DNA of 64,000 nt from Microgenomates group bacterium GW2011_GWF2_46_18 (GTDB lineage Bacteria; Patescibacteriota; Microgenomatia; UBA1400; UBA12108): NCBI GenBank assembly GCA_001002415.1, contig LCMB01000003.1:12489-76488 (forward strand), written 5' to 3'. Position numbers and translations under genes: made by a program. Below, in pieces: positions 8,923-53,376 of the stretch. The notes under the pieces are model-generated. The model saw nothing but the letters and a program-made list of their open reading frames with translations, did no database searches and was not told the DNA's origin. How positions within the stretch are numbered: the stretch's first letter is position 1; every line of letters starts with the position of its first letter.

Positions 8923-8979
8923 GACTTTTCTCCTCGCTTGGGGTAAAATAGGGAATGTAGGGTCGTCGTTCAGCGGTAG
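8923..8979 (+). repeat. 57-nt direct repeat copy 1: relic of a GIY-YIG gene 3' end plus tRNA-Trp nt 1-21
   Basis: gactttt-ctcctcg-cttggggtaaaatagggaatgtagggtcgtcgttcagcggtag matches 9233..9289 with a few mismatches. Followed by an 8-bp GC hairpin at 8980..9003. Confidence 0.7.
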
Positions 8980-9015
8980 CCCCGCTGCTCACGAACAGCG
9001 GGGTCCAAAACCGAA

Positions 9016-9261
9016 ATGTATTACGTATACATCCTAGAAGATCGAAACAACAAACTTTACATTGGTTATTCTTCCGATCTTAAAAAGAGACTCATCTCGC
9101 ATGCATCCGGAACTACTTACACCACTAAAAGGATGAACCAACCTCAGTTAGTTTATTACGAAGCTTACTCAACGGAACAACTAGCCAGAAATCGAGAATC
9201 CAAGCTAAAACAGTTCGGTTCGAGTTACGCGGGACTTTTAAAACGTCTTGGGTTAAAATAA
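9016..9261 (+). CDS. GIY-YIG nuclease family protein (short UPF0213/YhbQ-like type)
   Basis: YYVYILEDRNNKLYIGYSSDLKKRLISH carries the GIY-YIG signature (G-I-Y(10)Y-I-G, R, E/N). Confidence 0.7.
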   Translation: MYYVYILEDRNNKLYIGYSSDLKKRLISHASGTTYTTKRMNQPQLVYYEAYSTEQLARNRESKLKQFGSSYAGLLKRLGLK

Positions 9262-9289
9262 GGGGCATAGGGTCGTCGTTCAGCGGTAG
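9233..9289 (+). repeat. 57-nt direct repeat copy 2, overlapping the GIY-YIG 3' end and the tRNA-Trp 5' end
   Basis: See copy 1. Confidence 0.7.
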
Positions 9290-9342
9290 GACAGAGGTCT
9301 CCAAAACCTCTAACGAAGGTTCGATTCCTTCCGACCCTGCCC
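9269..9342 (+). tRNA. tRNA-Trp (anticodon CCA)
   Basis: Cloverleaf: acceptor AGGGTCG/CGACCCT, D arm GTTC-AGCGGTAG-GGAC, anticodon stem GAGGT/ACCTC with loop CTCCAAA, T arm GAAGG-TTCGATT-CCTTC, discriminator G. The 3' end reads GCCCA, so the terminal CCA is not cleanly encoded. Confidence 0.75.
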
Positions 9343-9373
9343 ACAATGCTTGAGCATAGCGATGCAGGCGGGC

Positions 9374-9401
9374 CTGCAGTAATATATTTTGATATATTCA
9401 A
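9374..9401. repeat. Palindromic intergenic repeat R1 (CTGCAGTAATATATTTTGATATATTCAA)
   Basis: Core AATATAT-TTTG-ATATATT is a perfect 7-nt inverted repeat. Related copies at 10316, 10990, 11435, 12163 and 13385. Confidence 0.7.
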
Positions 9402-9784
9402 TTAGGATAATTCCAGACAAATTTTAGCAAACCGTCATCATCATATTCTTTAACCACAACCCCACCCAGTAAACCCGGAAGGATATTCTCTCCGAACCAT
9501 TTCATTCTTTCGTTTTCTGTCTGGAAATGGTATTCCAGTGGCATACCACGATTTACAGTTTCAACTTTCATCTCACTAATTGCTGCTTCATATAGGGCAG
9601 TTGTTTCACCCTCATGTTTTAATCCACGCCCCGTACTAACAATATCCATGTGTGCCATTGTTTCATCAGGCAGGGATACCAAAAATAACCTGAGAATTTT
9701 TCCAAGACCCGTAAAGTCAATCTCCGTCATTTCCGCCATACCTGAATCAACTACTTGTCTAGTAATCTCGTGTTGAAAAAACAT
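9398..9784 (-). CDS. Hypothetical protein (island cassette)
   Basis: 128-aa ORF, protein-like composition, no recognisable motif. Confidence 0.45.
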   Translation of the reverse strand: MFFQHEITRQVVDSGMAEMTEIDFTGLGKILRLFLVSLPDETMAHMDIVSTGRGLKHEGETTALYEAAISEMKVETVNRGMPLEYHFQTENERMKWFGENILPGLLGGVVVKEYDDDGLLKFVWNYPN

Positions 9785-9844
9785 TCTCCCATTATAAGCC
9801 TAATATCAACCCCTCAGCTCCGACCAAATACAAATCACAAATAG

Positions 9845-10219
9845 TTATTTTTGAGATAACCTCTGAACTGACTGAATTAGCCACTTCATTCCGTCTTCTT
9901 CCACCGCCTGCTTTGCTAAATAAGCGTCGCCAAAATGATAGTTACTATATGAAAAAGCTAGCGTTCTAATCCCCGGAAACGCATTTCTCAACATTTCCTC
10001 TATGTCTCGCCCCCTACCAGCAAAGCCATCAATCACGGCTAAGGCGGCCACAATATTCTGCGCTTGTAACTCCGCTATCTTCCGATTAGTCTCACCCCGC
10101 GAACTCGCCTCCCACACCGTATAACCAGCTTCTTTTAGTGTTTGTACAGCACCAATAATCAAGGGAGATACATCGATATCATCATCCACAAACACCAAAT
10201 GTTCTTTGTTCGCCGTCAT
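9845..10219 (-). CDS. Stand-alone response-regulator receiver (CheY-like) domain protein
   Basis: HLVFVDDD acidic pocket, then a later conserved D and a K-containing segment, in a ~125-aa length typical of REC domains. Confidence 0.5.
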   Translation of the reverse strand: MTANKEHLVFVDDDIDVSPLIIGAVQTLKEAGYTVWEASSRGETNRKIAELQAQNIVAALAVIDGFAGRGRDIEEMLRNAFPGIRTLAFSYSNYHFGDAYLAKQAVEEDGMKWLIQSVQRLSQK

Positions 10220-10299
10220 GTAAATATTGTAAATCAATAGTCAATATCAACAAATCAACTACGGAAAAACACTCCTCTCCCCAAATAAGTAGGTTCCAA

Positions 10300-10344
10300 C
10301 ATCTTCCACCAGTCCCTGCAGTAATATATTTTGATATATTCAAC
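10300..10344. repeat. Palindromic intergenic repeat R2 (ccaccagtccCTGCAGTAATATATTTTGATATATTCAAc)
   Basis: Same core as R1; shares the ccaccagtcc extension with R3. Confidence 0.7.
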
Positions 10345-10939
10345 TAACCAAACTCTTCTTCCAAACTGGTGCATCGCCATCTTTCCCAAAATAACCTATT
10401 GCTACACCAACTCTTTGATATCCGGGCAATTTATCATAAAAACCCCACCCTGTATCCCGATATCTCGGACCACTATTCAACACGACCTCCGTATACCCTT
10501 GAACAACGGCGGCCTGTTCAAGCATCCCCACAAGAGCTCTCCCAACCCCCTTGCCACCTCTCTGCTTCGGGTCAACATACGCATTTACCAACTCTACAGG
10601 CTTATCTGTTTGAAGAAAATCTAACGCCAACATCCTTGAATCTGGTGGCCTCATACCAATAACCCCCACAACTTCACCCTTAACACCAACCGCTGTAAAA
10701 TACCGATAATCATTCAGTCTATTTACGCTGTCCTCCATTAGTTGTAAATCTTCCAACACTTCCTCTGGTAATGGTTGGCCAGTATCTCTACTCTTCACCC
10801 AATGTTCCAAAATTGGCTTAAGTTGAACCAAATCACCCATTTCTAATGGACGCACAAACCCTCCGAAACTTACAGTTTCATCCTTTGTTCTTCTTTCGTT
10901 ATTAGGACTCATACAAGTATATTTTACCCTAATAGGCAA
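10340..10939 (-). CDS. GNAT family N-acetyltransferase
   Basis: VELVNAYVDPKQRGGKGVGRALV matches the acetyl-CoA binding motif A (Q/R-x-x-G-x-G/A). Confidence 0.6.
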   Translation of the reverse strand: MPIRVKYTCMSPNNERRTKDETVSFGGFVRPLEMGDLVQLKPILEHWVKSRDTGQPLPEEVLEDLQLMEDSVNRLNDYRYFTAVGVKGEVVGVIGMRPPDSRMLALDFLQTDKPVELVNAYVDPKQRGGKGVGRALVGMLEQAAVVQGYTEVVLNSGPRYRDTGWGFYDKLPGYQRVGVAIGYFGKDGDAPVWKKSLVS

Positions 10940-10982
10940 TAATCAATTTTAGTAAATCATTTTAGGCACCCTCCACCAGTCC

Positions 10983-11017
10983 CGGCAAATATATCAAAGC
11001 GTATCAATTTTTTCTCT
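10983..11017. repeat. Intergenic repeat R3, inverted-orientation member (ccaccagtcccGGCAAATATATCAAAGCGTATCAA)
   Basis: Carries the reverse complement of the TTTGATATATT core. Confidence 0.65.
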
Positions 11018-11054
11018 AATGAATTTTTGTGTTACTTTTTGATAAAATCATCAC

Positions 11055-11411
11055 ATGGCAGACAAAGAGGTAAAGACGTTTGACACTATGGAAAAAGCCA
11101 TTAAGTCAAAAAAGAGATTATTAGACTCGGACTATGTCAAGTTGAATTTTATCGCTCTGGGAAATTTACAGAAGAAAACAATGTTAATTTTGCGAGAGCA
11201 AAACTTAGTTATTGTTGTTTTGTTCTTGTTATCTTGGTTCAAGGTTGAAGTTATATCAATAATAACCAATATCGCAACATGGACTTACGACTATGTTAAA
11301 TTTGCAGTTGAGGGATTTAATCAAATTTCGTTAGACACAAAGTATACTTTTCTAGTAGTTACACCAATCTCGCTAGTCATCGGATACATGCTTGGAAATA
11401 AACGAAAATAG
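11055..11411 (+). CDS. Small membrane protein, hypothetical
   Basis: Two hydrophobic helices (LVIVVLFLLSWF and FLVVTPISLVIGYML). Confidence 0.4.
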   Translation: MADKEVKTFDTMEKAIKSKKRLLDSDYVKLNFIALGNLQKKTMLILREQNLVIVVLFLLSWFKVEVISIITNIATWTYDYVKFAVEGFNQISLDTKYTFLVVTPISLVIGYMLGNKRK

Positions 11412-11463
11412 GTTCTGACATTCACCACTAATCTCTGCAGTGATATATTTTGATATAGTTAAC
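11410..11463. repeat. Intergenic repeat R4 (ggttctgacattcaccact...CTGCAGTGATATATTTTGATATAGTTAAC)
   Basis: Core palindrome plus a left extension shared with R6 (13340..13368). Confidence 0.65.
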
Positions 11464-11488
11464 TAATTCTTTGGGGTATAATCTCCCC

Positions 11489-12136
11489 ATGCATATCGAA
11501 AATGAGTGGGTCAAAACTACCCTCGCGGATTTTCTTGAAGCTATTCCCTCGGACTACCCGTACTTTGCTCTGGGATCGTTAGTTCTACTCTCATATACCG
11601 AGAATTTTTATACCAGACCAATACGAGATATTGATCTGATTGGCGACACCCACGGAACTGATAAGCTCGGAGCTGTGTTACTTGATAAGGGATACGCCCA
11701 AAACACATTTATCGATAGTAAATTTCCCCTCGCTCATAAACTACAAGCAATCGGAAAGAAAAAATACCTAAGATTTGAGAAGAATGGTCGAGCCCTTGAA
11801 ATCATGACTTCTAATTTGACGGCCAATGACGGGAGTATTGATGTCGAGCTTTATCCTGGAATAGCGGTCTCAATGTCTGAGTCGGCAGTTCAGAACACAA
11901 GATACCAGGGACTGGAATTCCGAGCTGTATCACCCGAGGCTCTCTTCTGCATTTATAACTTTGGACTAAAAACCTGGGGTACTCTCGTAAAGACACGGAT
12001 AGAACAGAGGCGCCGTGACTTGGCTGCATTACATAAAATCGTCCAGCCCTATGCTCTGACTAGAATCGCAGATAATGTTCATCTAAAAATTGGACGGTCA
12101 AGGATTAAAATTCCAAGCAAACTGATTACTACCTAA
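11489..12136 (+). CDS. Putative nucleotidyltransferase-fold protein
   Basis: FALGSLVLLSYTENFYTRPIRDIDLIGD resembles the minimal NTase motif hG[GS]-x(9-13)-DhD. TATAAT at 11476-11481 makes ATG 11489 the likely start. Confidence 0.35.
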   Translation: MHIENEWVKTTLADFLEAIPSDYPYFALGSLVLLSYTENFYTRPIRDIDLIGDTHGTDKLGAVLLDKGYAQNTFIDSKFPLAHKLQAIGKKKYLRFEKNGRALEIMTSNLTANDGSIDVELYPGIAVSMSESAVQNTRYQGLEFRAVSPEALFCIYNFGLKTWGTLVKTRIEQRRRDLAALHKIVQPYALTRIADNVHLKIGRSRIKIPSKLITT

Positions 12137-12157
12137 ATAAGTTCTCACATCCTCTCC

Positions 12158-12188
12158 TAATCTCTGCAAATATATCAAAGCATATCAC
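12158..12188. repeat. Intergenic repeat R5, inverted-orientation member (tctCTGCAAATATATCAAAGCATATCAC)
   Basis: Reverse complement of the core TTTGATATATT. Confidence 0.6.
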
Positions 12189-12201
12189 TTTATCTAGAAA
12201 T

Positions 12202-13182
12202 CTACCCTATCCAATTAAACAAATACCCCATCAGCATTATCCCCACAATCGTAATCCCAAAGAATGTAGCCAGTAGTTGCCATTTCATCACTTTCTTGAG
12301 GATCAAAGCTTCGGGAATAGACAGAGTGACCGTCGCGGTCATAAACGCGAGCGCTGTCCCTAGTGGTATCCCCTTCCCAATCAGCGCTTCCATCACCGGG
12401 ATTACTCCCACCGAGTTAGCATAGAGTGGAACACCCGAAAGAGTCGCTGCTGGAATGGCCCACCAACTTTTGGTCCCCAGATAACGCTCTATTAAAGTCT
12501 GTGGGATAAATCCATGGATTATCGCCCCTATCGCAACACCTAATAAGACATATGGATAGACTCTTTTAGTTATCTCCCATCCATCACTCCACCACAGTTT
12601 AGCCCTTTCCCCTACACTAAGCTCTACCCCTTCATTTTCTCTTAGTGCCTGTGCCCTATTCTTGAACTTTAGAAGCGAAGATTCCACATACTTCTCCATG
12701 TGCAACCGCCCAATTAGTATTCCCCCAAGGATGCTCACAATTATCCCCACAAGGTTATACAAAGCTGTCACCCGCCAGCCAAACAAGGCAGGAAAAAGTA
12801 AAAGAGAGGCTTCGTTTACCAGTGGCGAACTAATGAGGAAGGTAAAAGTAATACCAAGTGGTATCCCGGCCGACAAGAAACCAATAAACAGGGGGATCGA
12901 CGAACAGGAACAAAATGGGGTAATCACCCCCAGGAGTGCGGCCAACAAGTAATCTAGTCCAAACCATCTCCTCTTAGTGAGCAAATCCCGCACTTTCTCC
13001 ATCGGAAAGTAGTAACGAGTAATCGCCATCACATAATTTATCACTACCAAAAGCAGACCTATCTTGATTGAGTCGTAAATGAAAAAATTTACTGCCTCAC
13101 CCAGATAACTCCCTACCTGAATTCCCAGCCATTGGTGAACAACCGTCTCGGCCAAAATCTGAACTGGACTAAATATGTCCAT
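12202..13182 (-). CDS. DUF318/ArsP-type permease (COG0701)
   Basis: Polytopic membrane protein with the family-typical TPFCSCSSIPLF cysteine motif. Confidence 0.55.
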   Translation of the reverse strand: MDIFSPVQILAETVVHQWLGIQVGSYLGEAVNFFIYDSIKIGLLLVVINYVMAITRYYFPMEKVRDLLTKRRWFGLDYLLAALLGVITPFCSCSSIPLFIGFLSAGIPLGITFTFLISSPLVNEASLLLFPALFGWRVTALYNLVGIIVSILGGILIGRLHMEKYVESSLLKFKNRAQALRENEGVELSVGERAKLWWSDGWEITKRVYPYVLLGVAIGAIIHGFIPQTLIERYLGTKSWWAIPAATLSGVPLYANSVGVIPVMEALIGKGIPLGTALAFMTATVTLSIPEALILKKVMKWQLLATFFGITIVGIMLMGYLFNWIG

Positions 13183-13339
13183 ATATCTTTGCTTTCACTT
13201 TGTTCTTATCCGGAATAAATCCGGTCATTACTATTTTGTGTAGTTTTTGGCAGGTTGGGCACCCTGACCCCAATACTTGAATTTTCATAGGTTATTCTCC
13301 AAACCAAAAATACGCTCAATCTTTGCATTGTGCAACAGG

Positions 13340-13410
13340 TAGGTTCTGACATTCACCACTCATCCCTCCTACATCAAGGCTCCGGCCGGCAAATATCTTG
13401 CTCTCGTGCT
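13340..13410. repeat. Intergenic repeat R6, degenerate (aggttctgacattcaccact ... ggccGGCAAATATcttg)
   Basis: Shares the 19-nt ggttctgacattcaccact with R4 and the GGCAAATAT half-site with R3/R5. Confidence 0.45.
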
Positions 13411-14677
13411 CAATAACTTATATAGTGACATTAGCATGAAAAAAACGAATTTTCTTAGTCTCATCTTGCTCGGTACAGTGATCTTGCTCGCCAGCTTCTT
13501 TAGTATTAAAGATCCCACCCTATATGTGGATGAAACAGTCCACTACAAAGTCATCGAGAACTTTTGTAATCTCAATTTCACCATCCACCCCAATCTCACC
13601 AACATCCCTGCCTACCATGCCATCCTCGGCGGGATTTGTTATCTTGGCTCCTTCATCCTACCTCTTAATTCCATTCACTTTACTCGGATAACTTCCCTTT
13701 TCCTTAGTCTTCTAGGTCTTATTTTTTTCTATCTTCTTGCCAAAAAAATACAGCACAAGACTCCCCTATTCACAGTTCTCCAACTCTTTTTGCTTCCCAT
13801 TGCCTTCCCCTTTTATTTTCTCGTTTACACCGACATCCCCGCCATCGCTCCTATCGCCCTGGCCCTCTTACTCACCCTCAATTACAAATACGCTTGGGCG
13901 GGAATCTTGGTAACTCTCAGTATTGCTTTCCGTCAAAATAATTTCGTCTGGCTCGGATGGCTGGCTCTTACTATTTTCTTTGATGGAATGCTTTTCAAAT
14001 CTAATCTCAAATATCTCTTCCAATATATGCTTCAATATCTTTCGAAAGTTTCTACTTTCATCCTCGGTGCCGTTGCCTTTGTAGGTTTTGTGAAATGGAA
14101 CGGCGGGATCTCTCTGGCGAAAGCCGAAGAATGGGCTCATCCATCTTTTAGTTTCCATCTTGGCAATGTTTATTTGATGTTGGTCCTCTTTACTCTCGCC
14201 TTTTTACCCATAGTTATAGCCACTATCCCCAAAATAAAGCGTATTTGGAATCACAAGTTAATTCTTTCCCTGTTCTTACTGACTTGTGGGCTTATCACTT
14301 ATACTTTTCTCTTCCAATTTAACAATACTCATCCCTACAACCAACACGAATTCGCAGTCCACAATAAAATCTTGGTCCTGATGACCCAATCCTTTGCCAG
14401 TCGTCTAGTTTCTCTCATCCCCATGCTCCTGGCCCTTCTTACCATTTTTTCTACCAAATTCCGCCGACCCCTCTATTATCTGATGTATCCCTTCGCCCTT
14501 CTTTTTGTTCTCCCTTCTTGGCTGATCGAACCGCGCTACTACATAATCCCCTTCTATTTTTATCTTCTGTTTAAAGAGGAAAGTTCCAACCTTACGAAGC
14601 TCTCCCTCATCATTTGGGAACTCATTGGGTCTAGCTTGCTCCTCTATGGAACTCTCAACAAACTCCTCTTACCCTAA
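13406..14677 (+). CDS. GT-C fold membrane glycosyltransferase (ArnT/PMT GT39/83-like)
   Basis: About 11 predicted TM helices. First loop has YVDETVHY (the DE-x-x-Y motif of GT39/83). Confidence 0.45.
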   Translation: MLNNLYSDISMKKTNFLSLILLGTVILLASFFSIKDPTLYVDETVHYKVIENFCNLNFTIHPNLTNIPAYHAILGGICYLGSFILPLNSIHFTRITSLFLSLLGLIFFYLLAKKIQHKTPLFTVLQLFLLPIAFPFYFLVYTDIPAIAPIALALLLTLNYKYAWAGILVTLSIAFRQNNFVWLGWLALTIFFDGMLFKSNLKYLFQYMLQYLSKVSTFILGAVAFVGFVKWNGGISLAKAEEWAHPSFSFHLGNVYLMLVLFTLAFLPIVIATIPKIKRIWNHKLILSLFLLTCGLITYTFLFQFNNTHPYNQHEFAVHNKILVLMTQSFASRLVSLIPMLLALLTIFSTKFRRPLYYLMYPFALLFVLPSWLIEPRYYIIPFYFYLLFKEESSNLTKLSLIIWELIGSSLLLYGTLNKLLLP

Positions 14678-14684
14678 ACTTCAC

Positions 14685-15200
14685 CTATCGCTCCCAACGA
14701 AAATACCCATTCCCTCCCCCTCTGCCCGGTAATCTCCAATTCTGCCCCTCCACTTGCTGATAAAAACGTCTCATCGGTCCCTGGCGAGACAATCTATCGT
14801 TTAACCCCAAATAGTCCACCAAACCAGCCGCCAAAATAATTGCTACCACAAATCCACCGATCACCAGCCAGATGTTTTTCTTATAAACACAATCAAATTT
14901 CTTGAGTAACTTTATCCCCAAAACAATTCCTCCAATCGCCAATATTGGAACCCACCAAGGGAAATTATTGAGCATCAACTGCAACTTCCACTGCCCCATC
15001 GGTCCGTGCTGACGCAGCAAAAACCAGGTGAGATTCACCAGAAATATTGCTCCCACGGATAAGCCCGCAAGTCCCCCAACCAATAACACCGAACCCAACA
15101 CAAAATACCAGCGCGGTTTCATGGCAATCTCGTTGGACTCCACTTTGGCCATGATGGCTTTCTTCAGATCAATTGGCTTTACTTTTGCTGTTTTTGACAT
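14685..15200 (-). CDS. Putative membrane anti-sigma factor
   Basis: Overlaps the 3' end of the ECF sigma gene by 22 nt; a cytoplasmic N-terminus is followed by several TM helices. Confidence 0.4.
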   Translation of the reverse strand: MSKTAKVKPIDLKKAIMAKVESNEIAMKPRWYFVLGSVLLVGGLAGLSVGAIFLVNLTWFLLRQHGPMGQWKLQLMLNNFPWWVPILAIGGIVLGIKLLKKFDCVYKKNIWLVIGGFVVAIILAAGLVDYLGLNDRLSRQGPMRRFYQQVEGQNWRLPGRGGGNGYFRWER

Positions 15201-15727
15201 AATGCTTTCATGATTCCTTTGGCACGGCTAACCCTCGTTCCAACCGTCCCAATGGGAATTCGTAATATATCACTAATTTCCTCATACGATTTTTCCTCTA
15301 GATAAAACAGCGACAACGGCTCCTTATAAATGAGCGGCATCTGCTCTAAACAGCGATGGGTGTGAGTAAGTAGCTCCTTTTTCACAAACTCAGCCTCCAA
15401 ATCCACCCCGCTTGCAAACTCCATTTTATCTCCAATTGTCTGATGTTTTTTTTGTTTATGTAGCATATTCATCGCTTCGTTGTGGACAATTCTGTATACC
15501 CAACTGGAAAATTTTTTCTTCGTATCAAAACTATGGAGATTAACATACGCTTTGATCAATCCCTCTTGCACCACATCAGCTCCCTTGTGGTCATCTCCCA
15601 TGATGTTGCTGGCATACCTCATTAGCTTATCCTGGTATCGTTTAATAATCTCTGCATACATTTCTTTATTCGAGCTTCGCACAATCTCGATTACTTCTTC
15701 GTCGGATAATTTGGCTGTCTGACTCAT
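15179..15727 (-). CDS. ECF-type RNA polymerase sigma factor
   Basis: Region 2 (FSSWVYRIVHNEAMNMLHK) and region 4 HTH (LSLFYLEEKSYEEISDILRIPIGTVGTRVSRAK). Confidence 0.7.
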   Translation of the reverse strand: MSQTAKLSDEEVIEIVRSSNKEMYAEIIKRYQDKLMRYASNIMGDDHKGADVVQEGLIKAYVNLHSFDTKKKFSSWVYRIVHNEAMNMLHKQKKHQTIGDKMEFASGVDLEAEFVKKELLTHTHRCLEQMPLIYKEPLSLFYLEEKSYEEISDILRIPIGTVGTRVSRAKGIMKALCQKQQK

Positions 15728-15814
15728 AGTTATTACACTTAGTATAACGCTTCACAACTGCCGACACCTCACTCATATCATCTGGGTGAGGCGTCAGCTA
15801 TTTTAGAAATATGG

Positions 15815-16189
15815 TTAACGATTAGTTCTTCCATATCCCATTCCTTGACCCATTCCTGAGCCATTACGGAGTCCGAGTCCTAGTTCTGCTCGGATCTTAT
15901 TGGCTTCTTCGGTGTTACCCTGTTTAGCCAATTCGTGAGCCTCGGCGAACCTGGCAAAGTTGTCAGCATTCACCACTTGAGTTACTCTACCACGGCCTGC
16001 CATTTGCTCTTTCCAAGCATTGTAATCTTTATTGGTAAATGCTTGCTCCATCGCAGCATGGCGCTCTTCGGTATAGTTAGGACCCGTTACGTTGGGATCC
16101 CCTCTATAAGCCTGGACAGCCTGAGGAGCGATAATTACGCCCCCAACAATCAAAGCCGTCAATCCAAATAGTATTGATGTCTTGTTCAT
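15815..16189 (-). CDS. Small secreted protein, hypothetical
   Basis: Signal peptide MNKTSILFGLTALIVGGVIIAPQAVQA; Gly/Met-rich C-terminus. Confidence 0.45.
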   Translation of the reverse strand: MNKTSILFGLTALIVGGVIIAPQAVQAYRGDPNVTGPNYTEERHAAMEQAFTNKDYNAWKEQMAGRGRVTQVVNADNFARFAEAHELAKQGNTEEANKIRAELGLGLRNGSGMGQGMGYGRTNR

Positions 16190-16325
16190 ATCTTTTCACC
16201 CCCTTTCAAAATTCAAATTGTGTTATCTACTAGTAGTACCGCAAACAGGTCTATTTTCTTTCACCCACCTTTACCGGATTATTCTTGAATATTTCCCTAT
16301 TTGTGCTACACTAACCCCATAAACG

Positions 16326-16359
16326 CCTCGTCTATGCTCCGGCTCGACGAGGTTTTTTT
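16326..16359 (+). promoter_or_regulatory. Hairpin with T-run; extended -10 TGcTATAAT (16362-16370) lies 6 nt upstream of the NYN gene ATG
   Basis: CCTCGTC-tatgctccggct-GACGAGG followed by TTTTTTT; TATAAT at 16365-16370; ATG at 16377. Confidence 0.35.
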
Positions 16360-16376
16360 ATTGCTATAATCAAGAT

Positions 16377-16964
16377 ATGTCCAAAACTATTCTCTACATC
16401 GATGGTGAAAACATCAAACACTACCTCAAACTGGTCCTCAAAAATGCGCAGATTCCAGTGAAACAACACAACCTGGAAAATTTCGCCTACTCCACCCTTT
16501 TCGCCCAAGTCCTCAAAGGTCTTGATCTGGCCGAACAGCGTTATTACTCCGCCAAAATTCGCTACCACGCCGAGCAGCAAGCCAAATCCAAAGAACTCAT
16601 TCTCAAACAACGTGTCCAGAAAAGTAGTTTGGAAAAGCAGGGAATCAAAGTCATTATGGGCGGCAATGTTCGCCCTCAAGAAGTAACCGTTAACGGCAAA
16701 AAGACTACCGTTTTCCACGAAAAAGGTGTCGATGTCCAAATTGCGGTAGATTTAATTACCGACGCTCTCGACAAAACCATTACTACCGCCGTTCTCTGTA
16801 GCTCCGATTCCGACCTGCAACCAGCCGTCCAGGAACTCAAACAACGGGGAGTGGAAATCATCTATCTTGGTTTCGAAATTAGTCCCAACAAAGGCCTCTC
16901 CTACACTACCAACCGGACTATTCTCATCCGTAATTCCGAGGTCTTAGATATCTATCGTTCCTAA
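16377..16964 (+). CDS. NYN (LabA-like, PIN-related) domain protein
   Basis: ILYIDGENI, then EKGVDVQIAVDLITDA and LCSSDSDL, match the conserved acidic NYN/LabA motifs. Confidence 0.6.
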   Translation: MSKTILYIDGENIKHYLKLVLKNAQIPVKQHNLENFAYSTLFAQVLKGLDLAEQRYYSAKIRYHAEQQAKSKELILKQRVQKSSLEKQGIKVIMGGNVRPQEVTVNGKKTTVFHEKGVDVQIAVDLITDALDKTITTAVLCSSDSDLQPAVQELKQRGVEIIYLGFEISPNKGLSYTTNRTILIRNSEVLDIYRS

Positions 16965-17055
16965 CTCAATTTCCCACCACACATTGCATATGCAATCCTA
17001 TAACTTGCATTCTAGGGTATAATTTCTAGCGTTTATATTAACTATTCAATTAACT

Positions 17056-18666
17056 ATGTCCCACAGCCAGCCAGAAATTCCCCCCATCGAAGGTCTCCTT
17101 CAAGCAGAAAGACCCGACCCAGACATTTTTCAAGACCAACCGCAGAACTGGACAGAACGCCTTGTCCCTGGTTTTCTGGCTGTTCTTCGAGGTATTGGGA
17201 TTGATTATCAGCCCCACATCCCCTCACTCAATTTTAAGGATTTAACTGCTGCCCACGAACATAATCCTTCTGAACTTCAGAAAATCAAAAAGAATTACCT
17301 TGGTGATCTCATCCAAGCTCGCTCTCATCGCGGAATCGGCACTCCCCTTAAAGCTATGGTTCAATATCTCCTCCAACCATCTAACGGCAACATTGAAACC
17401 CTGGGTGATCCCAACACCTGGGTTCTAGATCCTCTCGATTCTGAATCATGTTTGGCCGTAGTGAAATTACTTCTCGAAATTCAACAAAAAACCAATATCT
17501 GGATCGGTTTTGCGAAGCCCGAAGACTGGACCGATCCATGGAGTACTAAAAAAAACCAGCGTCCGCCTCTCCTTGGTCACGAACCAGATCCCATTTATGG
17601 TCGACGTAACCCCATTCGTTCTCTCCAAGATTTTCAGGATTATCTCCTAATTGCCAGAGAAATAGTAAAACAGGAGAGAATTGACCAACTCTCCCTCAAA
17701 CTCGCCCGAGCCCACAACTCTCAATTTGACAGCTTACTAACTCAAGAAAAACAACAACTTATCCAAAATCAAACCAACGAAGCCTCACGTCTCATCGAAC
17801 AAGTTTATTCCAAGACCATGAGATGGCGTGAGCTTAATGAGTTGCTTGCCAAATTAAATCAGCCCCCCTTAGAAAAATATGATCATAGTCTAATTAAAAT
17901 TTTTCCTCAAGATAACCCTGCCTACCAAAACGGGGACATCATGCTCACAGAAAGCGGAATCGAAATAGAGTTTTCAGAACATCAATTTACCCATCGTGGA
18001 ACAGAGACCAAACCACAAAAAGCCCGGCTCACCCTCATGCTTTCCCCCTCTGGGCAACTTATCATTATCGGCGATCAGCAACATCTTCCTTATCTTTATC
18101 CCATAATCCAAAGCCGCCACCTACTCGAGCTTCTAGACAAAAAAGTTCTTCCCAAATTCACCTCATCGTATTATGAAATAGAAATTATGCTCGAACTAGG
18201 TCTTCCAACTCACGACATAAATCCCTCCAATCTCGAATCTGCCATGCGAGGTGGAAAAATTGCCTTTGTTGTCGACATGATCGCCGGTAAACATCAACTT
18301 TGTCCTAACGGTCAAACAAAAACTCCATCCCCCAGTTTAACTCCATACCTCGTCCACCTAAATTCCGACACCCTTATTAATTCCTGTACGATTCTTCCCT
18401 CCTCTGTTAGAGATATGATCGAAACACACAATTATTTACCTTCCCTCTATCAACTTCTCAACAACTGCCAAGCTGATCCGTCTAAACTAACCCAACAAGA
18501 CGTTGATAACGCCAAAGCTCTCCTTGCTTTCAAGGATCAATGGGTCAATCAGTTTCCTCTCCCGCCCTCACTCCTTTCAACTCTTAAAGAAATTATTACC
18601 TATGGCCGTCCTCTTTCCAATCCTTGGCGATCCATCGTAATTTTAGAACAGCGTCTAAAAATCTAG
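17056..18666 (+). CDS. Hypothetical protein (536 aa)
   Basis: Long clean ORF with no recognisable motif. Confidence 0.5.
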   Translation: MSHSQPEIPPIEGLLQAERPDPDIFQDQPQNWTERLVPGFLAVLRGIGIDYQPHIPSLNFKDLTAAHEHNPSELQKIKKNYLGDLIQARSHRGIGTPLKAMVQYLLQPSNGNIETLGDPNTWVLDPLDSESCLAVVKLLLEIQQKTNIWIGFAKPEDWTDPWSTKKNQRPPLLGHEPDPIYGRRNPIRSLQDFQDYLLIAREIVKQERIDQLSLKLARAHNSQFDSLLTQEKQQLIQNQTNEASRLIEQVYSKTMRWRELNELLAKLNQPPLEKYDHSLIKIFPQDNPAYQNGDIMLTESGIEIEFSEHQFTHRGTETKPQKARLTLMLSPSGQLIIIGDQQHLPYLYPIIQSRHLLELLDKKVLPKFTSSYYEIEIMLELGLPTHDINPSNLESAMRGGKIAFVVDMIAGKHQLCPNGQTKTPSPSLTPYLVHLNSDTLINSCTILPSSVRDMIETHNYLPSLYQLLNNCQADPSKLTQQDVDNAKALLAFKDQWVNQFPLPPSLLSTLKEIITYGRPLSNPWRSIVILEQRLKI

Positions 18667-18702
18667 ATTGCATAAATAGGTAAAACCTAATATGCTTACC
18701 CC

Positions 18703-20028
18703 ATGCCCATGACTCATCGTCCTGTTCCAGCCGAGCTAGAATTCAAGCGTACCGCTCACGAAGAACGCCATCTTTTGGAAACGGTCCAGATCCCGATCGT
18801 CACGGTCTCCGCAACTTTCAAAGAAGAACTCGAAGCTCGCTTTGGCGAAAAGCCGACAGCCGAAACTCCCGACGTCACCTTTAGCCGCGCCCACTACAGT
18901 ATGGCCAACGCTTTGGTTGTTGAAGCTACCAAACAGCGCCGCACTTTCTGGATGATTGACCCGACCAACTATGTCTCCGCCAAGGACTGGCCCAAAATTA
19001 TGTTTACCCAAAGAATGGGACGCCTCATTGCCAGAAATCCCCTGCTCAAACAACTCAAAGACCTGATGGATACTCGGCTTCGCAATCAACTCCCTCTAAC
19101 CAGTGCTATTCGCGCTCCCTTAACTTATGTCACCGGCCGCGTCACCCGCCCCATTATTTCGCTCCACTACGAAGCTGGTAACATCCTGCTTGAAAACGGC
19201 AAAACTGTGCTCCAAGTTGTCACCGACCCCCATGTTCGTCCCCAATACTTAACCCACGCTGACAATCCTCATCTTACCTGGGCAGTTTTTGACGAACTGA
19301 CCAAATCTCGCCTACTCGAACTCGCCTATATCCTGGGCCACAAAGTCGACGAACGCCGTGTCCAAGTTACCGGTTGCCCCGTCGATCCACGAATTATCCG
19401 CAAAGACAAAAATACCGCCATCAAAGGTTATCGCTACCGCCCCCTTAGACTCGCCATCACCACTGGTGGTTTGGGCACCAACAAAGACGAAATCCAGGAT
19501 CTCTTGCTTCACCTTTCTCCCGCCATCAAAAAAGGCGAAGTCCACATTGCGGCTTATTGTGGTGTCCACGAAGATTTCGAAACCATGTTCACCACTTTCG
19601 CCCGCGTCCATCGGATCAAAATTGGTGAGCTGGATGATCCCCAAGCACCTCTAAGAATCTTCCGCGGTCATGATATTGTCGCCGCTAACGAACTCTTGCT
19701 CGATTACATCTTTCCTTGGGCAGATGGCTTGATCACCAAGCCTAGTGGCGATATGGCCTACGAAGCCGTTGCCGCCGGTTGTTTTCTGTTAACTCTCAAG
19801 CCCTGGGGAGAGTGGGAAGACAATATTCGCGCCGTTACCGAAGCCTGGGGAGTCAGTATTCGTGCCGATATTAGCAACATTCTGTCTCAACTCAAGGCCA
19901 TCGTCACCGTCCCCATTCGTAAAAGTCAGCCGTGGGTGGAAGTAGCGCTTACTCGCGCCCAAAAACTTGCTCCCGATATCTCCCGCGGAGCCAGCAACAT
20001 TCTCAAACTTTATCGAAAACTCACCTAA
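18703..20028 (+). CDS. Hypothetical protein (441 aa), possibly glycosyltransferase-like
   Basis: Long clean ORF. LAITTGGLGTNKDE weakly resembles the nucleotide-sugar binding loops of GT-B enzymes. Confidence 0.45.
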   Translation: MPMTHRPVPAELEFKRTAHEERHLLETVQIPIVTVSATFKEELEARFGEKPTAETPDVTFSRAHYSMANALVVEATKQRRTFWMIDPTNYVSAKDWPKIMFTQRMGRLIARNPLLKQLKDLMDTRLRNQLPLTSAIRAPLTYVTGRVTRPIISLHYEAGNILLENGKTVLQVVTDPHVRPQYLTHADNPHLTWAVFDELTKSRLLELAYILGHKVDERRVQVTGCPVDPRIIRKDKNTAIKGYRYRPLRLAITTGGLGTNKDEIQDLLLHLSPAIKKGEVHIAAYCGVHEDFETMFTTFARVHRIKIGELDDPQAPLRIFRGHDIVAANELLLDYIFPWADGLITKPSGDMAYEAVAAGCFLLTLKPWGEWEDNIRAVTEAWGVSIRADISNILSQLKAIVTVPIRKSQPWVEVALTRAQKLAPDISRGASNILKLYRKLT

Positions 20029-49112: not shown

Positions 49113-52100
49113 CTAGTTACTCCCGTAATTGCCAAGGAATCCAAAGGCTTTCGAGAGATTAATAATTACCAAGTTAAGCGCACTCTGGGTTGCTTTAGGG
49201 GTAATCACTACCCGGTCCACCGATTGAGATTCATTATCCGCATCATCAAAAGAAATTGCCTTAACATGATAAACTCTCGAAGGTTGAAGATTGGGGACGA
49301 CTACTACATGATTATATGTTAAATCAGTATCATGCTGAGTTTTATTCACCAAATTCCCACTTGATCCTTCCCCATACGCTACCTGAGAAGTTGAGAGTTC
49401 ATCCGTATCCCACGCCACAACTAATTGTGCCGTAGTTTCTTCTCCCGCCCCTTGTATCACTGTCTCTACTTTCAAATTGGCCAATACCGGTGGTCGAGTA
49501 TCAGTCGCCGTGGTAAATGTTTGCGGATTACTCAAAGCCTCGTTGCCAATCTTATCTCTTCCTTTAACAATCAGAGTATACGCCGTATTAGGCAATAGTC
49601 CCTCAATCAACATTGTATGGGCTTTCACTAATTTAATCTCAATCTTATCTTGCGCCGCCGAAGCATTGGCTGATGGATAATAAGTCACAATACTCGAAAT
49701 TTCTGTGTTACTAGTCCAAGTAACCAAAACTGTCGAACTAGAGGATCCCCTCACCTGTTGTAACCTTACCGTCGCAATTTTTGGCCGAGGTAAAGTAGTA
49801 AAATCCAAAATCGTCCCCTCATATTCTGCCGTTTCTTCGTCAAACACATTAATTCTGTAGTAATACTTAGTCCCGTCAGTCAAACCAGATAATATCGTAG
49901 AATATGTCGTTTCACTGGTAGAAGTAGTCAAGGTCGTAGAACCACCAAAACTATTTGTTGTCCCGTAATATATTTTTACTTGACTAGCTCCAGTCACTGT
50001 ATAATTAATTACCGCTGAATCCAATCCAATACTAGTTACGTTCACGTTTTGTGCTACCGGTGCAGCATCTGTCGTAAAACTATACTCACTACTAGTTCCC
50101 GTATTGCCATCTTCATCCGTCCACTTAGCTTTATAATAATAAGTCGTCCCTGGAGATAATCCCGTTAGTTGAATTGAGTGCGCCGCCACTTGACTTGAAT
50201 TACTCGGTTCCACACTCCCATAGCTCCCACTGCCTGTCCCATACTGAATTTTTGAATCAGATGTTCGATCAGTCGACCAGGTTATCGTCGCTTTCTTGGT
50301 TGTAATCGATGACACTGCCGGATTAACACTCAATCCTGGCGCACTGGTCCACTTACCGGTCGGAGTTATTGAAACCGCATTTGTCCCGGAAGAAATCGCT
50401 TCAGCTCCATCCTGAGAATATACTTTGTAGTAATAAAGAACGGAAGCCGGAGTATTGTCCACATAGGAAAGACCGGAAGTACTACCTACCCGAGAAAAAC
50501 TAGACCCATCGACAGAACGATAAATCAGATAAGTTAAATTACCCGCTCCCTGGTAACTCGGAGCTGTCCAGGTCAAGGTCACATTCCATTGAGATGAAGA
50601 TTTAATACTAGAATCTGAAGCAACTAAATTACCCACATTGTCCGGATCGGTTGAATTTAAAGTAAAGCTACCGGAAATATAGTTGCTGGGAGAGTAATTT
50701 GGGGTTTCGGCATCATCTATTGCCACCACATAAACCGTGTTCACCCCTTTATTAACATTGGGTAAAGCAGCAGCGACTAAAGTAATTTCAGTACCATTAT
50801 CCCAATAGGTACTGGCATTACCTTGCAGTGTCGCCAAAGATGAAGGCGGACTGGTATTAATCATGTAATAGTAACTAGTCACATTTTGACCATCGGTCGG
50901 TGTTGCCTCCGACCATGAAAGAGAAAACTCATTGGTATCTGAAGTAGTAGGATCAATTGTTACCACACCATCTCCAGGAAAACTCGGAGCCTCCCCACCG
51001 TAAGTCAAATTACCGGTCCGGTAAGTTGCCGCCGAAGAGGGATTGCCGGCATTGTCGACCGTCCGGAAATAAACCACATTATTGCCAGTTATTACATTAG
51101 CTTCATCACGAGCAGCAATAAATGTATATGCAGAGGCAGTAGCCGGGATATAGTCCAAATCAAATTCCGCATTATAAGTCGTTCCCTGCCAAGAACCGGC
51201 ACTCGAATTAAGCTGATATTGCCAACCCAAAACTCCCGATTCGGAATCGGAACTGGCACTGCCACCACTAGTCGGCCAAGAAAAATTCATATCCACTACA
51301 TTAGAAAAATTAGTTGAAGGCATAGTCAGATAAGCTACATTAGTAGGGACAGTACTATCGTACTTAAAGCTCACCAAATCCTGCCAAGGACCAGCGATAT
51401 CATTGGCCACATTCCCAGCCGCATCCACCGCCTTAATCGAAAACCAATACTGTTTGTTAGTCGGTAAAGTTAAACCAGAAATCGAACTCAAATCCACGCT
51501 TGTTCCGGCAACAATATAAGGACAAGTTGAGTTATTGGTAATTCCATCATCCAAACCGTTCATCTCTCCTGCATCAGTCTCCGGATTAAGACTAGCTGAC
51601 GGAGTTGCATCTACCGTTTGCTCATCCAAAGAGATACAGTAACCAGCAACAGCCGTATCATCAGTCCCAGCTGTCCAAGTGATGGTAGGTTCAGTACTCG
51701 TCCAATTCCCACTGGTTAACCCAGTAATTGCCACATTAGCTGCATTCACGCTAGGTCTCAATTGATCTGAAGCTGTAAAAGGAACAGAAATATCATAAAG
51801 CTCCGGAGATAATGCTCCCTGGACAGTCAAAGTTGCCTGGTATTGAAGATATTGATCCTGGTCAGTAACACAATCAGTTTCTGTCAGATCTGTCCCAGAA
51901 GCAATCCCACTACAAGACCCCCAATCCGTAGCCCCAGACATATCCGGACTGCTATCAGTTCTAACTTTAATCGTTACTCCGGACCCTGAAGCCGTGTAAC
52001 TCAACTCCCCCCAGTCAGCCGCAAATCCGGCATCCAAAATATTCGAAATCAAAATACCAGAATCAGGATACTGACTTACCTCATCAGCGATTGTATTAAA

Positions 52101-53360
52101 AGCATTCGTTTCAGATTTGTAAGAAGCTGCAATCCAAGCGGCTGAACGTCCAATATCTGAAACTCTAATTTCATCGAGAACTCCATTAACATAATAGCTA
52201 GGTGCAAGTTTACCAATTGTAGTTGCACTCCCGGTAGAAAGCGCCCCTGATACTGATTGAGAGCTTGTTTGAACCCCATCAATATAGGCCTTTAGTGTTT
52301 CTCCGTTATACACCAAGCCTAATTGATGAAATTGCCCATCTCCCAGCCCACTTCCACTATTAAATACTTGTCTCCCCATCGTTGCTGTCGTGACTCCTGC
52401 TCTAATTTGTCCTGTGCTCTCAATCGCATCCAACTCAATCTGGGTACCTTGCATATAAATCGTATGATATCCACTCCCTGCCACTCCTAATCTCTTAAAC
52501 CAGGTAGTAACTGTCACTTGTGAGGCTGGGCTAATCGCAGTAATCGTAATGTTATCGCCGGCACCATTAAAGTGATCTGCTCCATCAATCTGACCAATGT
52601 CTGCCCCTTGCTCGGTCACCGTTACACTATTTGAATCAAAATTATTTGCAGTCGAATCATAGTGAACGCCACTGCTCTCATTAAAATGTTGGACCATCTT
52701 ATAACCACTATTCCAAACACTACTTTCTGTTTGTCCATCACTCGCTCCGGTATTACCGTAATATATATATACATAATCAGTGTTAGAATTTTGATCAATT
52801 TGGGGAACTTTAACCCACACGTATGAAGACCCGGTTTCATCCCACTTCTCGATTTCATAAGCCAAAACCGTCCCATCAGAATCAGTGAATCTCAAATCCT
52901 GACCCAAGTCTTGAGTCTTGGTGTAATCAATATTTGTCCCTGTGTCCAGCTTCACCAATACCGGGAAATCAGTTAGATTTTCACTAGTTACTCCCAAAGT
53001 AGCGTCAGTATTATCAAAGGTAATCTTCCTTCGATATGCCCAATTATGATAATCACTACTCCAACCATCCGTCTGATCAAGGACAATCAAACCAGCGCTG
53101 GCTGTGGCTTCAACTCCATCCAAACTCGTCCAGGTATTTACTGTCTCAGAAACTAACGTGGAACTATCCCCTCCACTCCAGTCCGTTTGGACCCATGGCG
53201 TACTTGTCGCTCTAATTCGTGGAATTACCACATCATTCACCAAGAAAAATAGTCCAATCGCCATTCCAGCCGTCAACGCACTAATAACCGCCATCTGTAA
53301 CCACACAAACGAAAACCTTGGTTTCAAATATCGATTTATCAACTTTTCTTTGATCGTCAT
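49113..53360 (-). CDS. Giant surface protein (1415 aa) with LamG/concanavalin-like and multiple fibronectin-III-like domains
   Basis: N-terminal TM/signal anchor. Ser/Thr/Gly/Asn-rich beta-sandwich repeats. Its C-terminal ~640 aa is paralogous to the C-terminus of the adjacent 2355-aa protein and ends ...LNLVIINLSKAFGFLG.... Confidence 0.7.
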   Translation of the reverse strand: MTIKEKLINRYLKPRFSFVWLQMAVISALTAGMAIGLFFLVNDVVIPRIRATSTPWVQTDWSGGDSSTLVSETVNTWTSLDGVEATASAGLIVLDQTDGWSSDYHNWAYRRKITFDNTDATLGVTSENLTDFPVLVKLDTGTNIDYTKTQDLGQDLRFTDSDGTVLAYEIEKWDETGSSYVWVKVPQIDQNSNTDYVYIYYGNTGASDGQTESSVWNSGYKMVQHFNESSGVHYDSTANNFDSNSVTVTEQGADIGQIDGADHFNGAGDNITITAISPASQVTVTTWFKRLGVAGSGYHTIYMQGTQIELDAIESTGQIRAGVTTATMGRQVFNSGSGLGDGQFHQLGLVYNGETLKAYIDGVQTSSQSVSGALSTGSATTIGKLAPSYYVNGVLDEIRVSDIGRSAAWIAASYKSETNAFNTIADEVSQYPDSGILISNILDAGFAADWGELSYTASGSGVTIKVRTDSSPDMSGATDWGSCSGIASGTDLTETDCVTDQDQYLQYQATLTVQGALSPELYDISVPFTASDQLRPSVNAANVAITGLTSGNWTSTEPTITWTAGTDDTAVAGYCISLDEQTVDATPSASLNPETDAGEMNGLDDGITNNSTCPYIVAGTSVDLSSISGLTLPTNKQYWFSIKAVDAAGNVANDIAGPWQDLVSFKYDSTVPTNVAYLTMPSTNFSNVVDMNFSWPTSGGSASSDSESGVLGWQYQLNSSAGSWQGTTYNAEFDLDYIPATASAYTFIAARDEANVITGNNVVYFRTVDNAGNPSSAATYRTGNLTYGGEAPSFPGDGVVTIDPTTSDTNEFSLSWSEATPTDGQNVTSYYYMINTSPPSSLATLQGNASTYWDNGTEITLVAAALPNVNKGVNTVYVVAIDDAETPNYSPSNYISGSFTLNSTDPDNVGNLVASDSSIKSSSQWNVTLTWTAPSYQGAGNLTYLIYRSVDGSSFSRVGSTSGLSYVDNTPASVLYYYKVYSQDGAEAISSGTNAVSITPTGKWTSAPGLSVNPAVSSITTKKATITWSTDRTSDSKIQYGTGSGSYGSVEPSNSSQVAAHSIQLTGLSPGTTYYYKAKWTDEDGNTGTSSEYSFTTDAAPVAQNVNVTSIGLDSAVINYTVTGASQVKIYYGTTNSFGGSTTLTTSTSETTYSTILSGLTDGTKYYYRINVFDEETAEYEGTILDFTTLPRPKIATVRLQQVRGSSSSTVLVTWTSNTEISSIVTYYPSANASAAQDKIEIKLVKAHTMLIEGLLPNTAYTLIVKGRDKIGNEALSNPQTFTTATDTRPPVLANLKVETVIQGAGEETTAQLVVAWDTDELSTSQVAYGEGSSGNLVNKTQHDTDLTYNHVVVVPNLQPSRVYHVKAISFDDADNESQSVDRVVITPKATQSALNLVIINLSKAFGFLGNYGSN

Positions 53361-53376
53361 ATGTTTATCTTGTTAA

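Follow-up and report, generated by a model that had tools for sequence, protein, structure and literature searches.

A probable serial-integration array of very small gene units at the 3' end of tRNA-Trp in a Microgenomates bacterium

In Dehalococcoides, islands lie in tandem at ssrA, a small essential RNA gene, and are bounded by direct repeats of the 3' end of that gene (McMurdie et al. 2011, PMC3146451). A serine recombinase of ~540 aa is encoded there on the reverse strand beside attL, and some of the tandem units are without an integration module and are regarded as cis-mobilizable (PMC3146451). In the tycheposon islands, which occupy tRNA genes of Prochlorococcus, 910 of the 937 elements rely on tyrosine recombinases (Hackl et al., bioRxiv 10.1101/2020.12.28.424599). 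Here we describe a cassette-like island of small genes behind the tRNA-Trp gene in a 64,000-nucleotide stretch (the window, taken from contig LCMB01000003.1) of Microgenomates group bacterium GW2011_GWF2_46_18. The island is very likely a serial-integration array of the large serine recombinase (LSR) type at the tRNA-Trp 3' end, in which each repeat is an attR-type junction, and it is a miniaturised form of an island type that is already known.

The host is a tiny groundwater bacterium. Patescibacteria (Candidate Phyla Radiation, CPR) have tiny genomes, and to our knowledge not many ways in which they exchange genes have been described.

Junctions and units of the island

The initial annotation had proposed an accessory island anchored at tRNA-Trp whose units are delimited by a palindromic repeat, and both parts of this proposal were borne out. 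The repeat family comprises six copies of ~58 nt, R1 to R6, which are all on the plus strand, span 9345-13406 and delimit five units of 0.45-1.2 kb in the order P-g1-g2-L; P-g3-L; Q-g4-L; P-g5-L; Q-g6-trx'-L. Each unit is compact, with one or two intact open reading frames (ORFs) packed tightly between the arms. A repeat is made up of a left arm, L, and a right arm, which is of type P in R1, R2 and R4 and of the inverted type Q in R3 and R5. The L arm has 27-31 nt of the form GTTC..ACA..C.AC.A..CCCTGC (consensus ATAGGTTCTGACATCCTCCACCAGTCCCTGC), the P arm reads AGTRATATATTTTGATATA.. and the Q arm AAATATATCAAAGCRTATCA. With a slash at the point where the arms meet, the junction consensus is CCCTGC/AGTGATAT. 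The last 22 nt of the tRNA-Trp gene (GTTC..CCCTGC) form an attB-type left arm, the B arm. The features of the island are, in order:

9268..9343, plus strand: tRNA-Trp(cca), Rfam 62.6 bits
9344..9377, plus strand: left side of junction R1, a spacer with hairpin TGCAGGcgggCCTGCA that ends in CCTGC
9378..9405, plus strand: R1 right arm, type P (AGTAATATATTTTGATATATTCAATTAG), which holds the g1 stop codon
9398..9784, minus strand: g1, an ORFan of 128 aa, unit 1
9845..10237, minus strand: g2, 124-130 aa, family not detected, unit 1
10289..10319, plus strand: R2 L arm, an attP-type P arm, GTTC..TGC of 27 nt
10320..10347, plus strand: R2 right arm, type P, which holds the g3 stop codon
10340..10939, minus strand: g3, GNAT acetyltransferase (PF00583, E 1e-7), unit 2
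10961..10986, plus strand: R3 L arm, degenerate, with the GTTC end lost and CCACCAGTCCCGGC retained; missed by the regular expression
10987..11010, plus strand: R3 right arm, type Q (inverted P)
11055..11411, plus strand: g4, predicted membrane protein of 118 aa with its TAG stop inside the R4 L arm, unit 3
11408..11438, plus strand: R4 L arm, 27-nt geometry
11439..11466, plus strand: R4 right arm, type P; a deletion in the relative L001 has its right end between 11439 and 11440
11471..12136, plus strand: g5, 215-221 aa, weak nucleotidyltransferase-fold match (NTP_transf_5, E 1e-4, under the cut-off), unit 4
12137..12167, plus strand: R5 L arm, 27-nt geometry
12168..12194, plus strand: R5 right arm, type Q (inverted P)
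12202..13182, minus strand: g6, ArsP_1/DUF318 permease (PF03773, E 4e-66), unit 5
13169..13288, minus strand: truncated thioredoxin_3-like ORF of 39 aa (MKIQVLGSGCPTCQKL..), which overlaps the g6 start, unit 5
13339..13369, plus strand: R6 L arm, 27-nt geometry, at the array's distal end
13370..13405, plus strand: ancestral chromosomal tRNA-Trp flank (B' side), TACATCAAGGCTCCGGCCGGCAAATATC..., 98% common with strain L098

The palindrome, its half-site and the shared flanking modules named in the initial annotation were all recovered. The perfect palindrome AATATATTTTGATATATT occurs at 9381-9398 and 10323-10340, a variant with 2 mismatches at 11442-11459 and an inverted one with 3 mismatches at 12169-12186; 4 matches were counted in the window against 0.14 expected. 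The half-site GGCAAATATATCAAAG is present at 10984-10999 and, with 1 mismatch, at 12165-12180, while ccaccagtcc is shared by R2 and R3 and ggttctgacattcaccact by R4 and R6. The Q arm of R5 matched the reverse complement of the R4 P arm over 22 nt without gaps (86%, inverted repeat I1). The palindrome, which had been taken for the core of the repeat, is its right half only; the informative half is the tRNA-like L arm, which had been missed. Nor does every intergenic gap hold a copy: the g1-g2 gap (9785-9844) showed no supported repeat, and a seventh junction there was dropped, as the likeness to the R6 right arm is weak (p ~0.04). Both ends of the array differ from the consensus. R1 is without an L arm and has on its left side a GC hairpin that ends in CCTGC. 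This spacer gave no significant match to the L consensus, so that a decayed L arm was dropped as an explanation; it may be left over from the 3' end of an older tRNA. R6 is without the palindrome, and its right side resembles the native tRNA-Trp flank of a relative.

Copies of the repeat were searched for in the whole 64-kb window. A profile built from the repeats found zero further copies elsewhere in it, and the gene order of the island was the same in independent assemblies (metagenome-assembled genome at NCBI, ENA, JGI). The initial annotation had also considered modules bounded by miniature inverted-repeat transposable elements (MITE) or a genome-wide repetitive extragenic palindromic (REP) element. 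A dispersed repeat of this kind that is dense here by chance would be short, AT-rich and palindromic, as the present one is, and nothing more speaks for it. Against it stand the 60 kb of the window that hold no further copy and ~80 unrelated loci with zero L-arm or repeat copies. Among 185,579 species genomes the exact P motif had two matches: L017, a Candidatus Woesebacteria contig, is the one relevant species and carries it again at tRNA-Trp, whereas L016 (Thomasclavelia) is presumed to be a chance match. In viral contigs the L pattern had 0 matches, and the 8 matches of the P pattern were chance matches with no tRNA or L arm nearby. We therefore give a dispersed repeat almost no probability.

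The palindrome could further be the operator of one dimeric regulator that controls all island genes together, as was suggested at the outset. P is a perfect 7-4-7 palindrome and at the same time a direct repeat of TGATAT at 10-bp spacing, and a sigma-70 family gene lies ~2 kb downstream. Yet TGATAT-N4-TGATAT (<=1 mismatch) was found solely where it abuts CTGCA junctions. The motif keeps its place at the recombination junction whichever way it is oriented, and it is found equally often at the 3' and the 5' ends of genes: it stands at the 3' ends of g1 and g3, whose stop codons occupy the same position within P, and between the convergent g5 and g6. In other genomes it follows tRNA-Trp directly and unrelated genes lie downstream. 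Promoter-like matches in the region were fewer than in shuffles, which removed P as a promoter as well. These observations make an operator very unlikely. A terminator was also considered and rejected, since P forms a weak, AT-only hairpin that was not picked up by the terminator scan.

Plus-strand GC skew was uniformly negative over positions 1-30000 of the window (-0.13 to -0.43 per 1-kb interval) despite genes on both strands. So strong a strand bias is out of the ordinary and probably influences how C-rich the L arms look.

The L arm and serine recombinase elements in relatives

Orthologous loci were gathered through the neighbouring M50 protease. In related Patescibacteria the L arm was found to be the right end of LSR elements of 5.5-9 kb that occupy the 3' end of tRNA-Trp or tRNA-Asp. 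The crossover could be read directly from two contigs of one species with identical protease, L099 with an occupied and L100 with an unoccupied site. In L099, 7.5 kb have been inserted at the end of the tRNA, where the flanks, which are 98-99.7% identical between the two contigs, overlap by 5 nt (CCTGC). The attB site of L100 reads ..caggCCTGC/tttacccc. In L099, attL reads ..CCTGC/aacgtagaaatgacggg and runs into the 3' end of the LSR gene, which encodes a Resolvase+Recombinase protein of 580 aa on the reverse strand, and attR reads GTTCTCACACTCTCGACCAGTCCCTGC/tttacccc, which is an L arm followed by the chromosomal flank. The L arm of the window is therefore the left half of an LSR attP, with the crossover within CCTGC. 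The comparison of L117 with L118 agrees, save for a 74-nt tRNA remnant in L118, and L106 and L117 provided additional attL/attR pairs at tRNA-Trp.

An LSR gene (PF00239+PF07508) was present beside the att site in L098, L099, L106, L107, L110, L111, L114 and L117. The family had 2,007 members at E<=1e-30, mostly from named Patescibacteria. Members that are 65-66% identical to the L098 recombinase lie at the tRNA-Asp 3' end with the same L arm, and in L110 at least 4 further L junctions follow the element at tRNA-Asp. An L-arm profile made from the window copies alone matched only in such arrays.

The geometry of the arms separates the two types of site. The span GTTC..GC was 22 nt in all 12 tRNA arms matched by the scan and, counted by hand, in a 13th, the tRNA-Asp arm of L107, which the scan had missed; each of the 16 L arms, which come from 8 loci, gave 27 nt. 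Relative to attP, attB has the motif for the zinc-ribbon domain (ZD) 5 bp nearer to the centre (Rutherford et al. 2013, PMC3783163). Together with this published offset, the two spans identify the L arm as an attP-type half-site and not as a decayed tRNA copy, which also accounts for features such as ACAT that L arms of distant genomes share and no tRNA has. In L017, whose left flank is syntenic with the window, the P motif lies directly 3' of tRNA-Trp (..TAGGTTCGAGCCCTAGTACCCCTGC/AGTGATATATTTTGATATA), and a second L+P junction follows one small gene onward (GTTCTTACATCCTTCACGAGTCCCTGC/ATTGATATATATTGATATAG). It follows that the L arm resembles the T-arm/acceptor end of the tRNA and that P sits at the start of the tRNA trailer. 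The enzyme behind the junction scars is probably a large serine recombinase.

In the mechanism that we propose, each incoming element would bear at its right end the L arm (~30 nt) as the left half of attP. This arm would mimic the T-arm/acceptor end of the tRNA, with GTTC placed 5 bp farther from the crossover. Autonomous elements of 5.5-9 kb have their LSR gene on the reverse strand, abutting the tRNA, and integrate by a crossover inside CCTGC, the last bases of the tRNA. The right ~20-27 nt of a junction would then be whatever lay beside the tRNA at the time of arrival, namely the left end of the previous occupant. Each newcomer would insert beside the tRNA and push the older units outward, and the array would terminate on the original chromosomal flank.

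The initial annotation had likened the units to integron cassettes. An integron-like array, with folded sites of the attC type and a tyrosine integrase, would share with the island its single-gene units, the partly palindromic repeat that delimits them and a gene content that varies between strains. The Pfam lists of all genes called in window 2202-23182 contained no Phage_integrase, and no tyrosine recombinase or IntI was found within 10 kb on either side. The junction is CCCTGC/A, with no GTTRRRY or RYYYAAC core, and homologous junctions carry a serine recombinase. Folding of the repeat RNA, which had been put forward as a check, gave energies no better than those of shuffles (z -0.75 to +1.97). 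As Rfam matched tRNA only over the region, an RNA structure or family was rejected for the repeats. An integron is therefore extremely improbable. Xer/pdif modules were also considered and rejected: the L arms all point in one direction, an 11-6-11 dif-like site was not seen, and P and Q alternate only partly.

A free circular attP was not found, and the small LSR contigs that were examined were integrated or ended at the tRNA. A phage origin of the LSR elements was rejected as well, since PHROG matches were absent for 10 LSR-element proteins, IMG/VR held no LSR relatives with either a single protein or a 14-sequence alignment as query, and the L pattern is absent from viral contigs. The LSR element at tRNA-Trp in L114 (279-5900) has within ~5.7 kb genes for a GP3_package (small-terminase-like) protein, SocA_Panacea and a Cro/CI-type helix-turn-helix protein, a set that is reminiscent of phage satellites; no phage-family matches were obtained for other elements.

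Build-up of the array and of the tRNA-Trp locus

Strain L098 belongs to the same species as the window, since the M50 protease is 99% identical and the flanks are 93-98% identical at the nucleotide level. At the same tRNA-Trp it has a 5.5-kb element with an LSR of 570 aa that ends in an L arm. Past this element follow P, a DUF3800 gene and L, then Q, two small genes and L, and the array ends on the distal flank of R6, with 98% identity from window 13339 onward. The two strains share the distal junction only; their gene content at the site is entirely different, and no cassette gene was common to any two arrays. The terminal L arms of the window and L098 differ at 5 of 31 positions beside a flank that is 98% identical. 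Taken together, the lack of common genes and the diverged L arms suggest that both arrays were built up or exchanged during the species' lifetime. A gene content that differs between close relatives, as expected for a cassette-like island, was thus confirmed by L098, in which all genes differ, and by the assembly of L001 (GCA_003508865.1), which is without window 9813-11439, that is g2 to g4. Since the arrays can be completely different between strains, they mark where strain-specific genes reside, and the same differences explain frequent assembly breaks at tRNA-Trp. Contigs L102, L103, L120, L121, L124 and L125 end at or just past tRNA-Trp, which is consistent with strain heterogeneity that breaks assemblies.

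The distal end of the array also locates the original site. In R6, which reads L/TACATCAAGGCTCCGGCCGGCAAATAT, the sequence to the right of the L arm is co-linear with the native flank of tRNA-Trp in L021 (p ~0.007). L023 has no inserted genes, and a conserved 441-aa gene begins 46 nt past its tRNA. The original flank thus now lies 4 kb from the tRNA. The intervening junctions are all composed of L and the left end of an older unit, which is the pattern expected from repeated insertion beside the tRNA. A tandem architecture of units without a recombinase was also found in L098, L017, L100 and L110. Among L023, L021, L027, L100 and L118, the distance from tRNA-Trp to the conserved 441-aa gene begins at 46 nt (L023), and it reaches ~9.4 kb in the window, so that the variable region is larger than the repeat-bounded island.

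Several observations weigh against serial integration by an LSR. No LSR gene or fragment was found by tblastn in the island or the 64-kb window, so we infer that the units of the window were inserted by an LSR acting in trans. That the recombinase of a resident element would move such units is hinted at, indirectly, only by the complete difference in gene content between strains of one species. The only variant within the population, the deletion in L001, ends on the right 1 nt past the R4 crossover zone, but its endpoints share no dinucleotide and the left one lies in the g1-g2 gap and not at a supported junction; it was therefore rejected as a clean LSR excision product. In L110 (2544-4150), two adjacent cassettes are tandem duplicates with 94% identity, and tandem duplication hence also builds arrays. 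The P/Q arm is unlike the right arm of autonomous LSR elements, and the sites that LSRs occupy have mutually unrelated right arms, an uncommon situation for serine integrases.

Each of the duplicated L110 cassettes encodes a 102-aa membrane protein that is itself internally duplicated, and the repeats between the L110 cassettes are ~200 nt long with a hairpin right after the L arm (-27.5 kcal/mol, z -6.9).

The left ends of the units were P in 8 cases from 5 genomes and Q in 3 cases, with P conserved over ~20 nt and fading by position 28. The right arm of LSR elements has instead AAARTAGAAA.. and a hairpin and lies inside the C-terminal coding region of the LSR gene. Strong hairpins were seen in right arms of LSR elements and of the L110 cassettes (-13 and -27.5 kcal/mol). 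No convincing symmetry was seen by eye between the L arm and any right arm, and the half-sites did not prove related; an L/P pseudo-dyad with 10 of 27 positions matching was dropped. The left ends are never an LSR-type right arm, which argues against simple decay and favours a recombinase-less family with its own conserved end. We infer that the P/Q arm would be the conserved left-end half-site of such a unit family, comparable to cis-mobilizable or pseudo-SCC elements. Either the enzyme needs the tRNA-side half-site alone, or P has another role.

Decay deserves weight as an explanation of the units. They would then be remnants of full LSR elements of 5-9 kb, with P/Q a relic of the ancestral region downstream of tRNA-Trp and with no mobilisation in trans. 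Autonomous LSR elements do occupy the same site in the same species, the Q core AAATATATCAAA is also found in the native L021 flank at 29 nt from the crossover, and the tycheposon paper reports islands with degenerate remnants and partial tRNAs. However, LSR fragments were absent from every array even at E<=1. The intact, tightly packed ORFs with stop codons inside the arms and the exclusive P (8) or Q (3) left ends do not look like remnants either, and the unit nearest to the tRNA is of type P and without a recombinase in L017, L019, L026 and the window, where it follows a 34-nt spacer (R1). On this evidence decay is rather unlikely.

A bolder reading takes the P-gene-L and Q-gene-L units as circularisable single-gene mini-cassettes, with an attP composed of L and the palindromic arm of ~20-27 nt in either orientation, that LSRs acting in trans would capture at tRNA 3' ends. 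We regard it as doubtful and quite unlikely. If true, the mini-cassettes would be the serine-recombinase counterpart of the integron and one of the main ways by which the reduced genomes of Patescibacteria gain genes, their LSR family would need only one well-defined attB half-site, the tRNA end, and they would represent a second, mechanistically independent invention of cassette capture.

Among the gene assignments made in the initial annotation, the GNAT acetyltransferase and the DUF318 permease were confirmed, the nucleotidyltransferase fold remained a weak match, and the stand-alone receiver domain, which concerns g2, found no Pfam or PDB match. For g1 one variant with 95% identity was found among 5.8 billion proteins, and g1 homologues as a route to further arrays were given up when the gene proved to be an ORFan. 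The thioredoxin_3-like fragment, which received a weak PF13192 call in assemblies L003 and L006, is apparently a partner gene in truncated form within the g6 unit. A defence function was rejected, as PADLOC had no match among the six window genes; the DUF3800 gene of L098 gave one sub-threshold match. The stretch beyond the array (13406-20000) is free of L arms; its genes include those for an ALG10-like glycosyltransferase, the sigma-70 family protein and an NYN protein. On the minus strand, window 49113-60444 holds a pair of adjacent, very large ORFs of 1415 and 2355 aa.

Upstream of the array the tRNA-Trp gene itself has been remodelled, as two further features indicate:

8937..9012, plus strand: incomplete copy of the 5' part of tRNA-Trp (to CAGCGGTAG) and of its promoter region, with the hairpin and loop-like sequence described below
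9016..9261, plus strand: gene for an 81-aa GIY-YIG nuclease (PF01541, E 5e-14), between the partial copy and the intact tRNA-Trp

The copy shows as direct repeat D5, which has 43 nt with 86% identity to 9247-9289, and it covers the first 22 nt of the tRNA. It is followed by a GC hairpin, CCCCGCTGctcacgaaCAGCGGGG, and then by the anticodon-loop-like TCCAAAACC. Rfam showed no intron match in the region of the partial copy. L098 is without the GIY-YIG insertion and aligns across the insertion point. This looks like nuclease-associated replacement of, or insertion at, a tRNA gene. In L118 (7193-7346) and L119 (11175-11330), 74 nt of an older tRNA-Trp persist behind a complete new one, and this remnant bears the module of CAGCGGTAG, GC hairpin and TCCAAAACC as in the window. 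L122 (8986-10440), which is of one population with L117 (identical M50 protease), has a second LSR element with 68% nucleotide identity. It sits after an old tRNA remnant (8986-9140) and not after the functional tRNA; the 3' part of the tRNA thus seems sufficient as a target. Different LSR elements seem to compete for one tRNA site.

Comparison with known systems

The locus offers a concrete route of gene exchange: a widespread LSR family has tRNA 3' ends as its target, and arrays of very small units with accessory genes are what it leaves behind. For recombinase engineering it is of interest that, of the two attB half-sites, one is supplied by a conserved tRNA end and the other seems free of constraint, and the 5-bp offset between attP and attB is visible in natural sequence across 29 sites.

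With integron cassettes the units share a compact single-ORF build, either orientation, a recombination site that overlaps stop codons and a high turnover between strains. In contrast to integrons, IntI, attI, Pc and an attC fold are absent, the recombinase is of the serine and not the tyrosine type, and the anchor is a tRNA gene.

The tycheposon islands resemble the array in that the host is streamlined and older elements are driven into the island as further ones integrate at the same tRNA; there, too, the elements are set apart by partial tRNA repeats, and degenerate remnants occur. They differ in having true partial tRNAs and replication modules, whereas here an LSR and single-gene units are found.

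Composite islands of the staphylococcal cassette chromosome (SCC) type, such as SCCmec, psi-SCC and ACME (a mobile element for arginine catabolism), are likewise tandem elements driven by an LSR (Ccr) at one conserved gene 3' end. Direct repeats demarcate them, and SCC has pseudo-elements without ccr. Their target is rlmH/orfX and not a tRNA, their units are ~10-60 kb long, and inverted repeats accompany their direct repeats, where the present array has an arm that mimics a tRNA.

The ssrA islands differ in their target, which is tmRNA there and tRNA-Trp here (tRNA-Asp in relatives). The repeat of the window is a 27-nt attP-type arm with a +5 bp offset instead of an exact copy of the gene end, and its units measure 0.45-1.2 kb with one or two genes and not several kb. 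A DsiA-like second recombinase and a conserved six-gene module are absent here, and the host belongs to the Patescibacteria. In both systems, tandem units lie at the 3' end of an RNA gene, a reverse-strand LSR is found next to attL (here in the relatives), and some units are recombinase-less.

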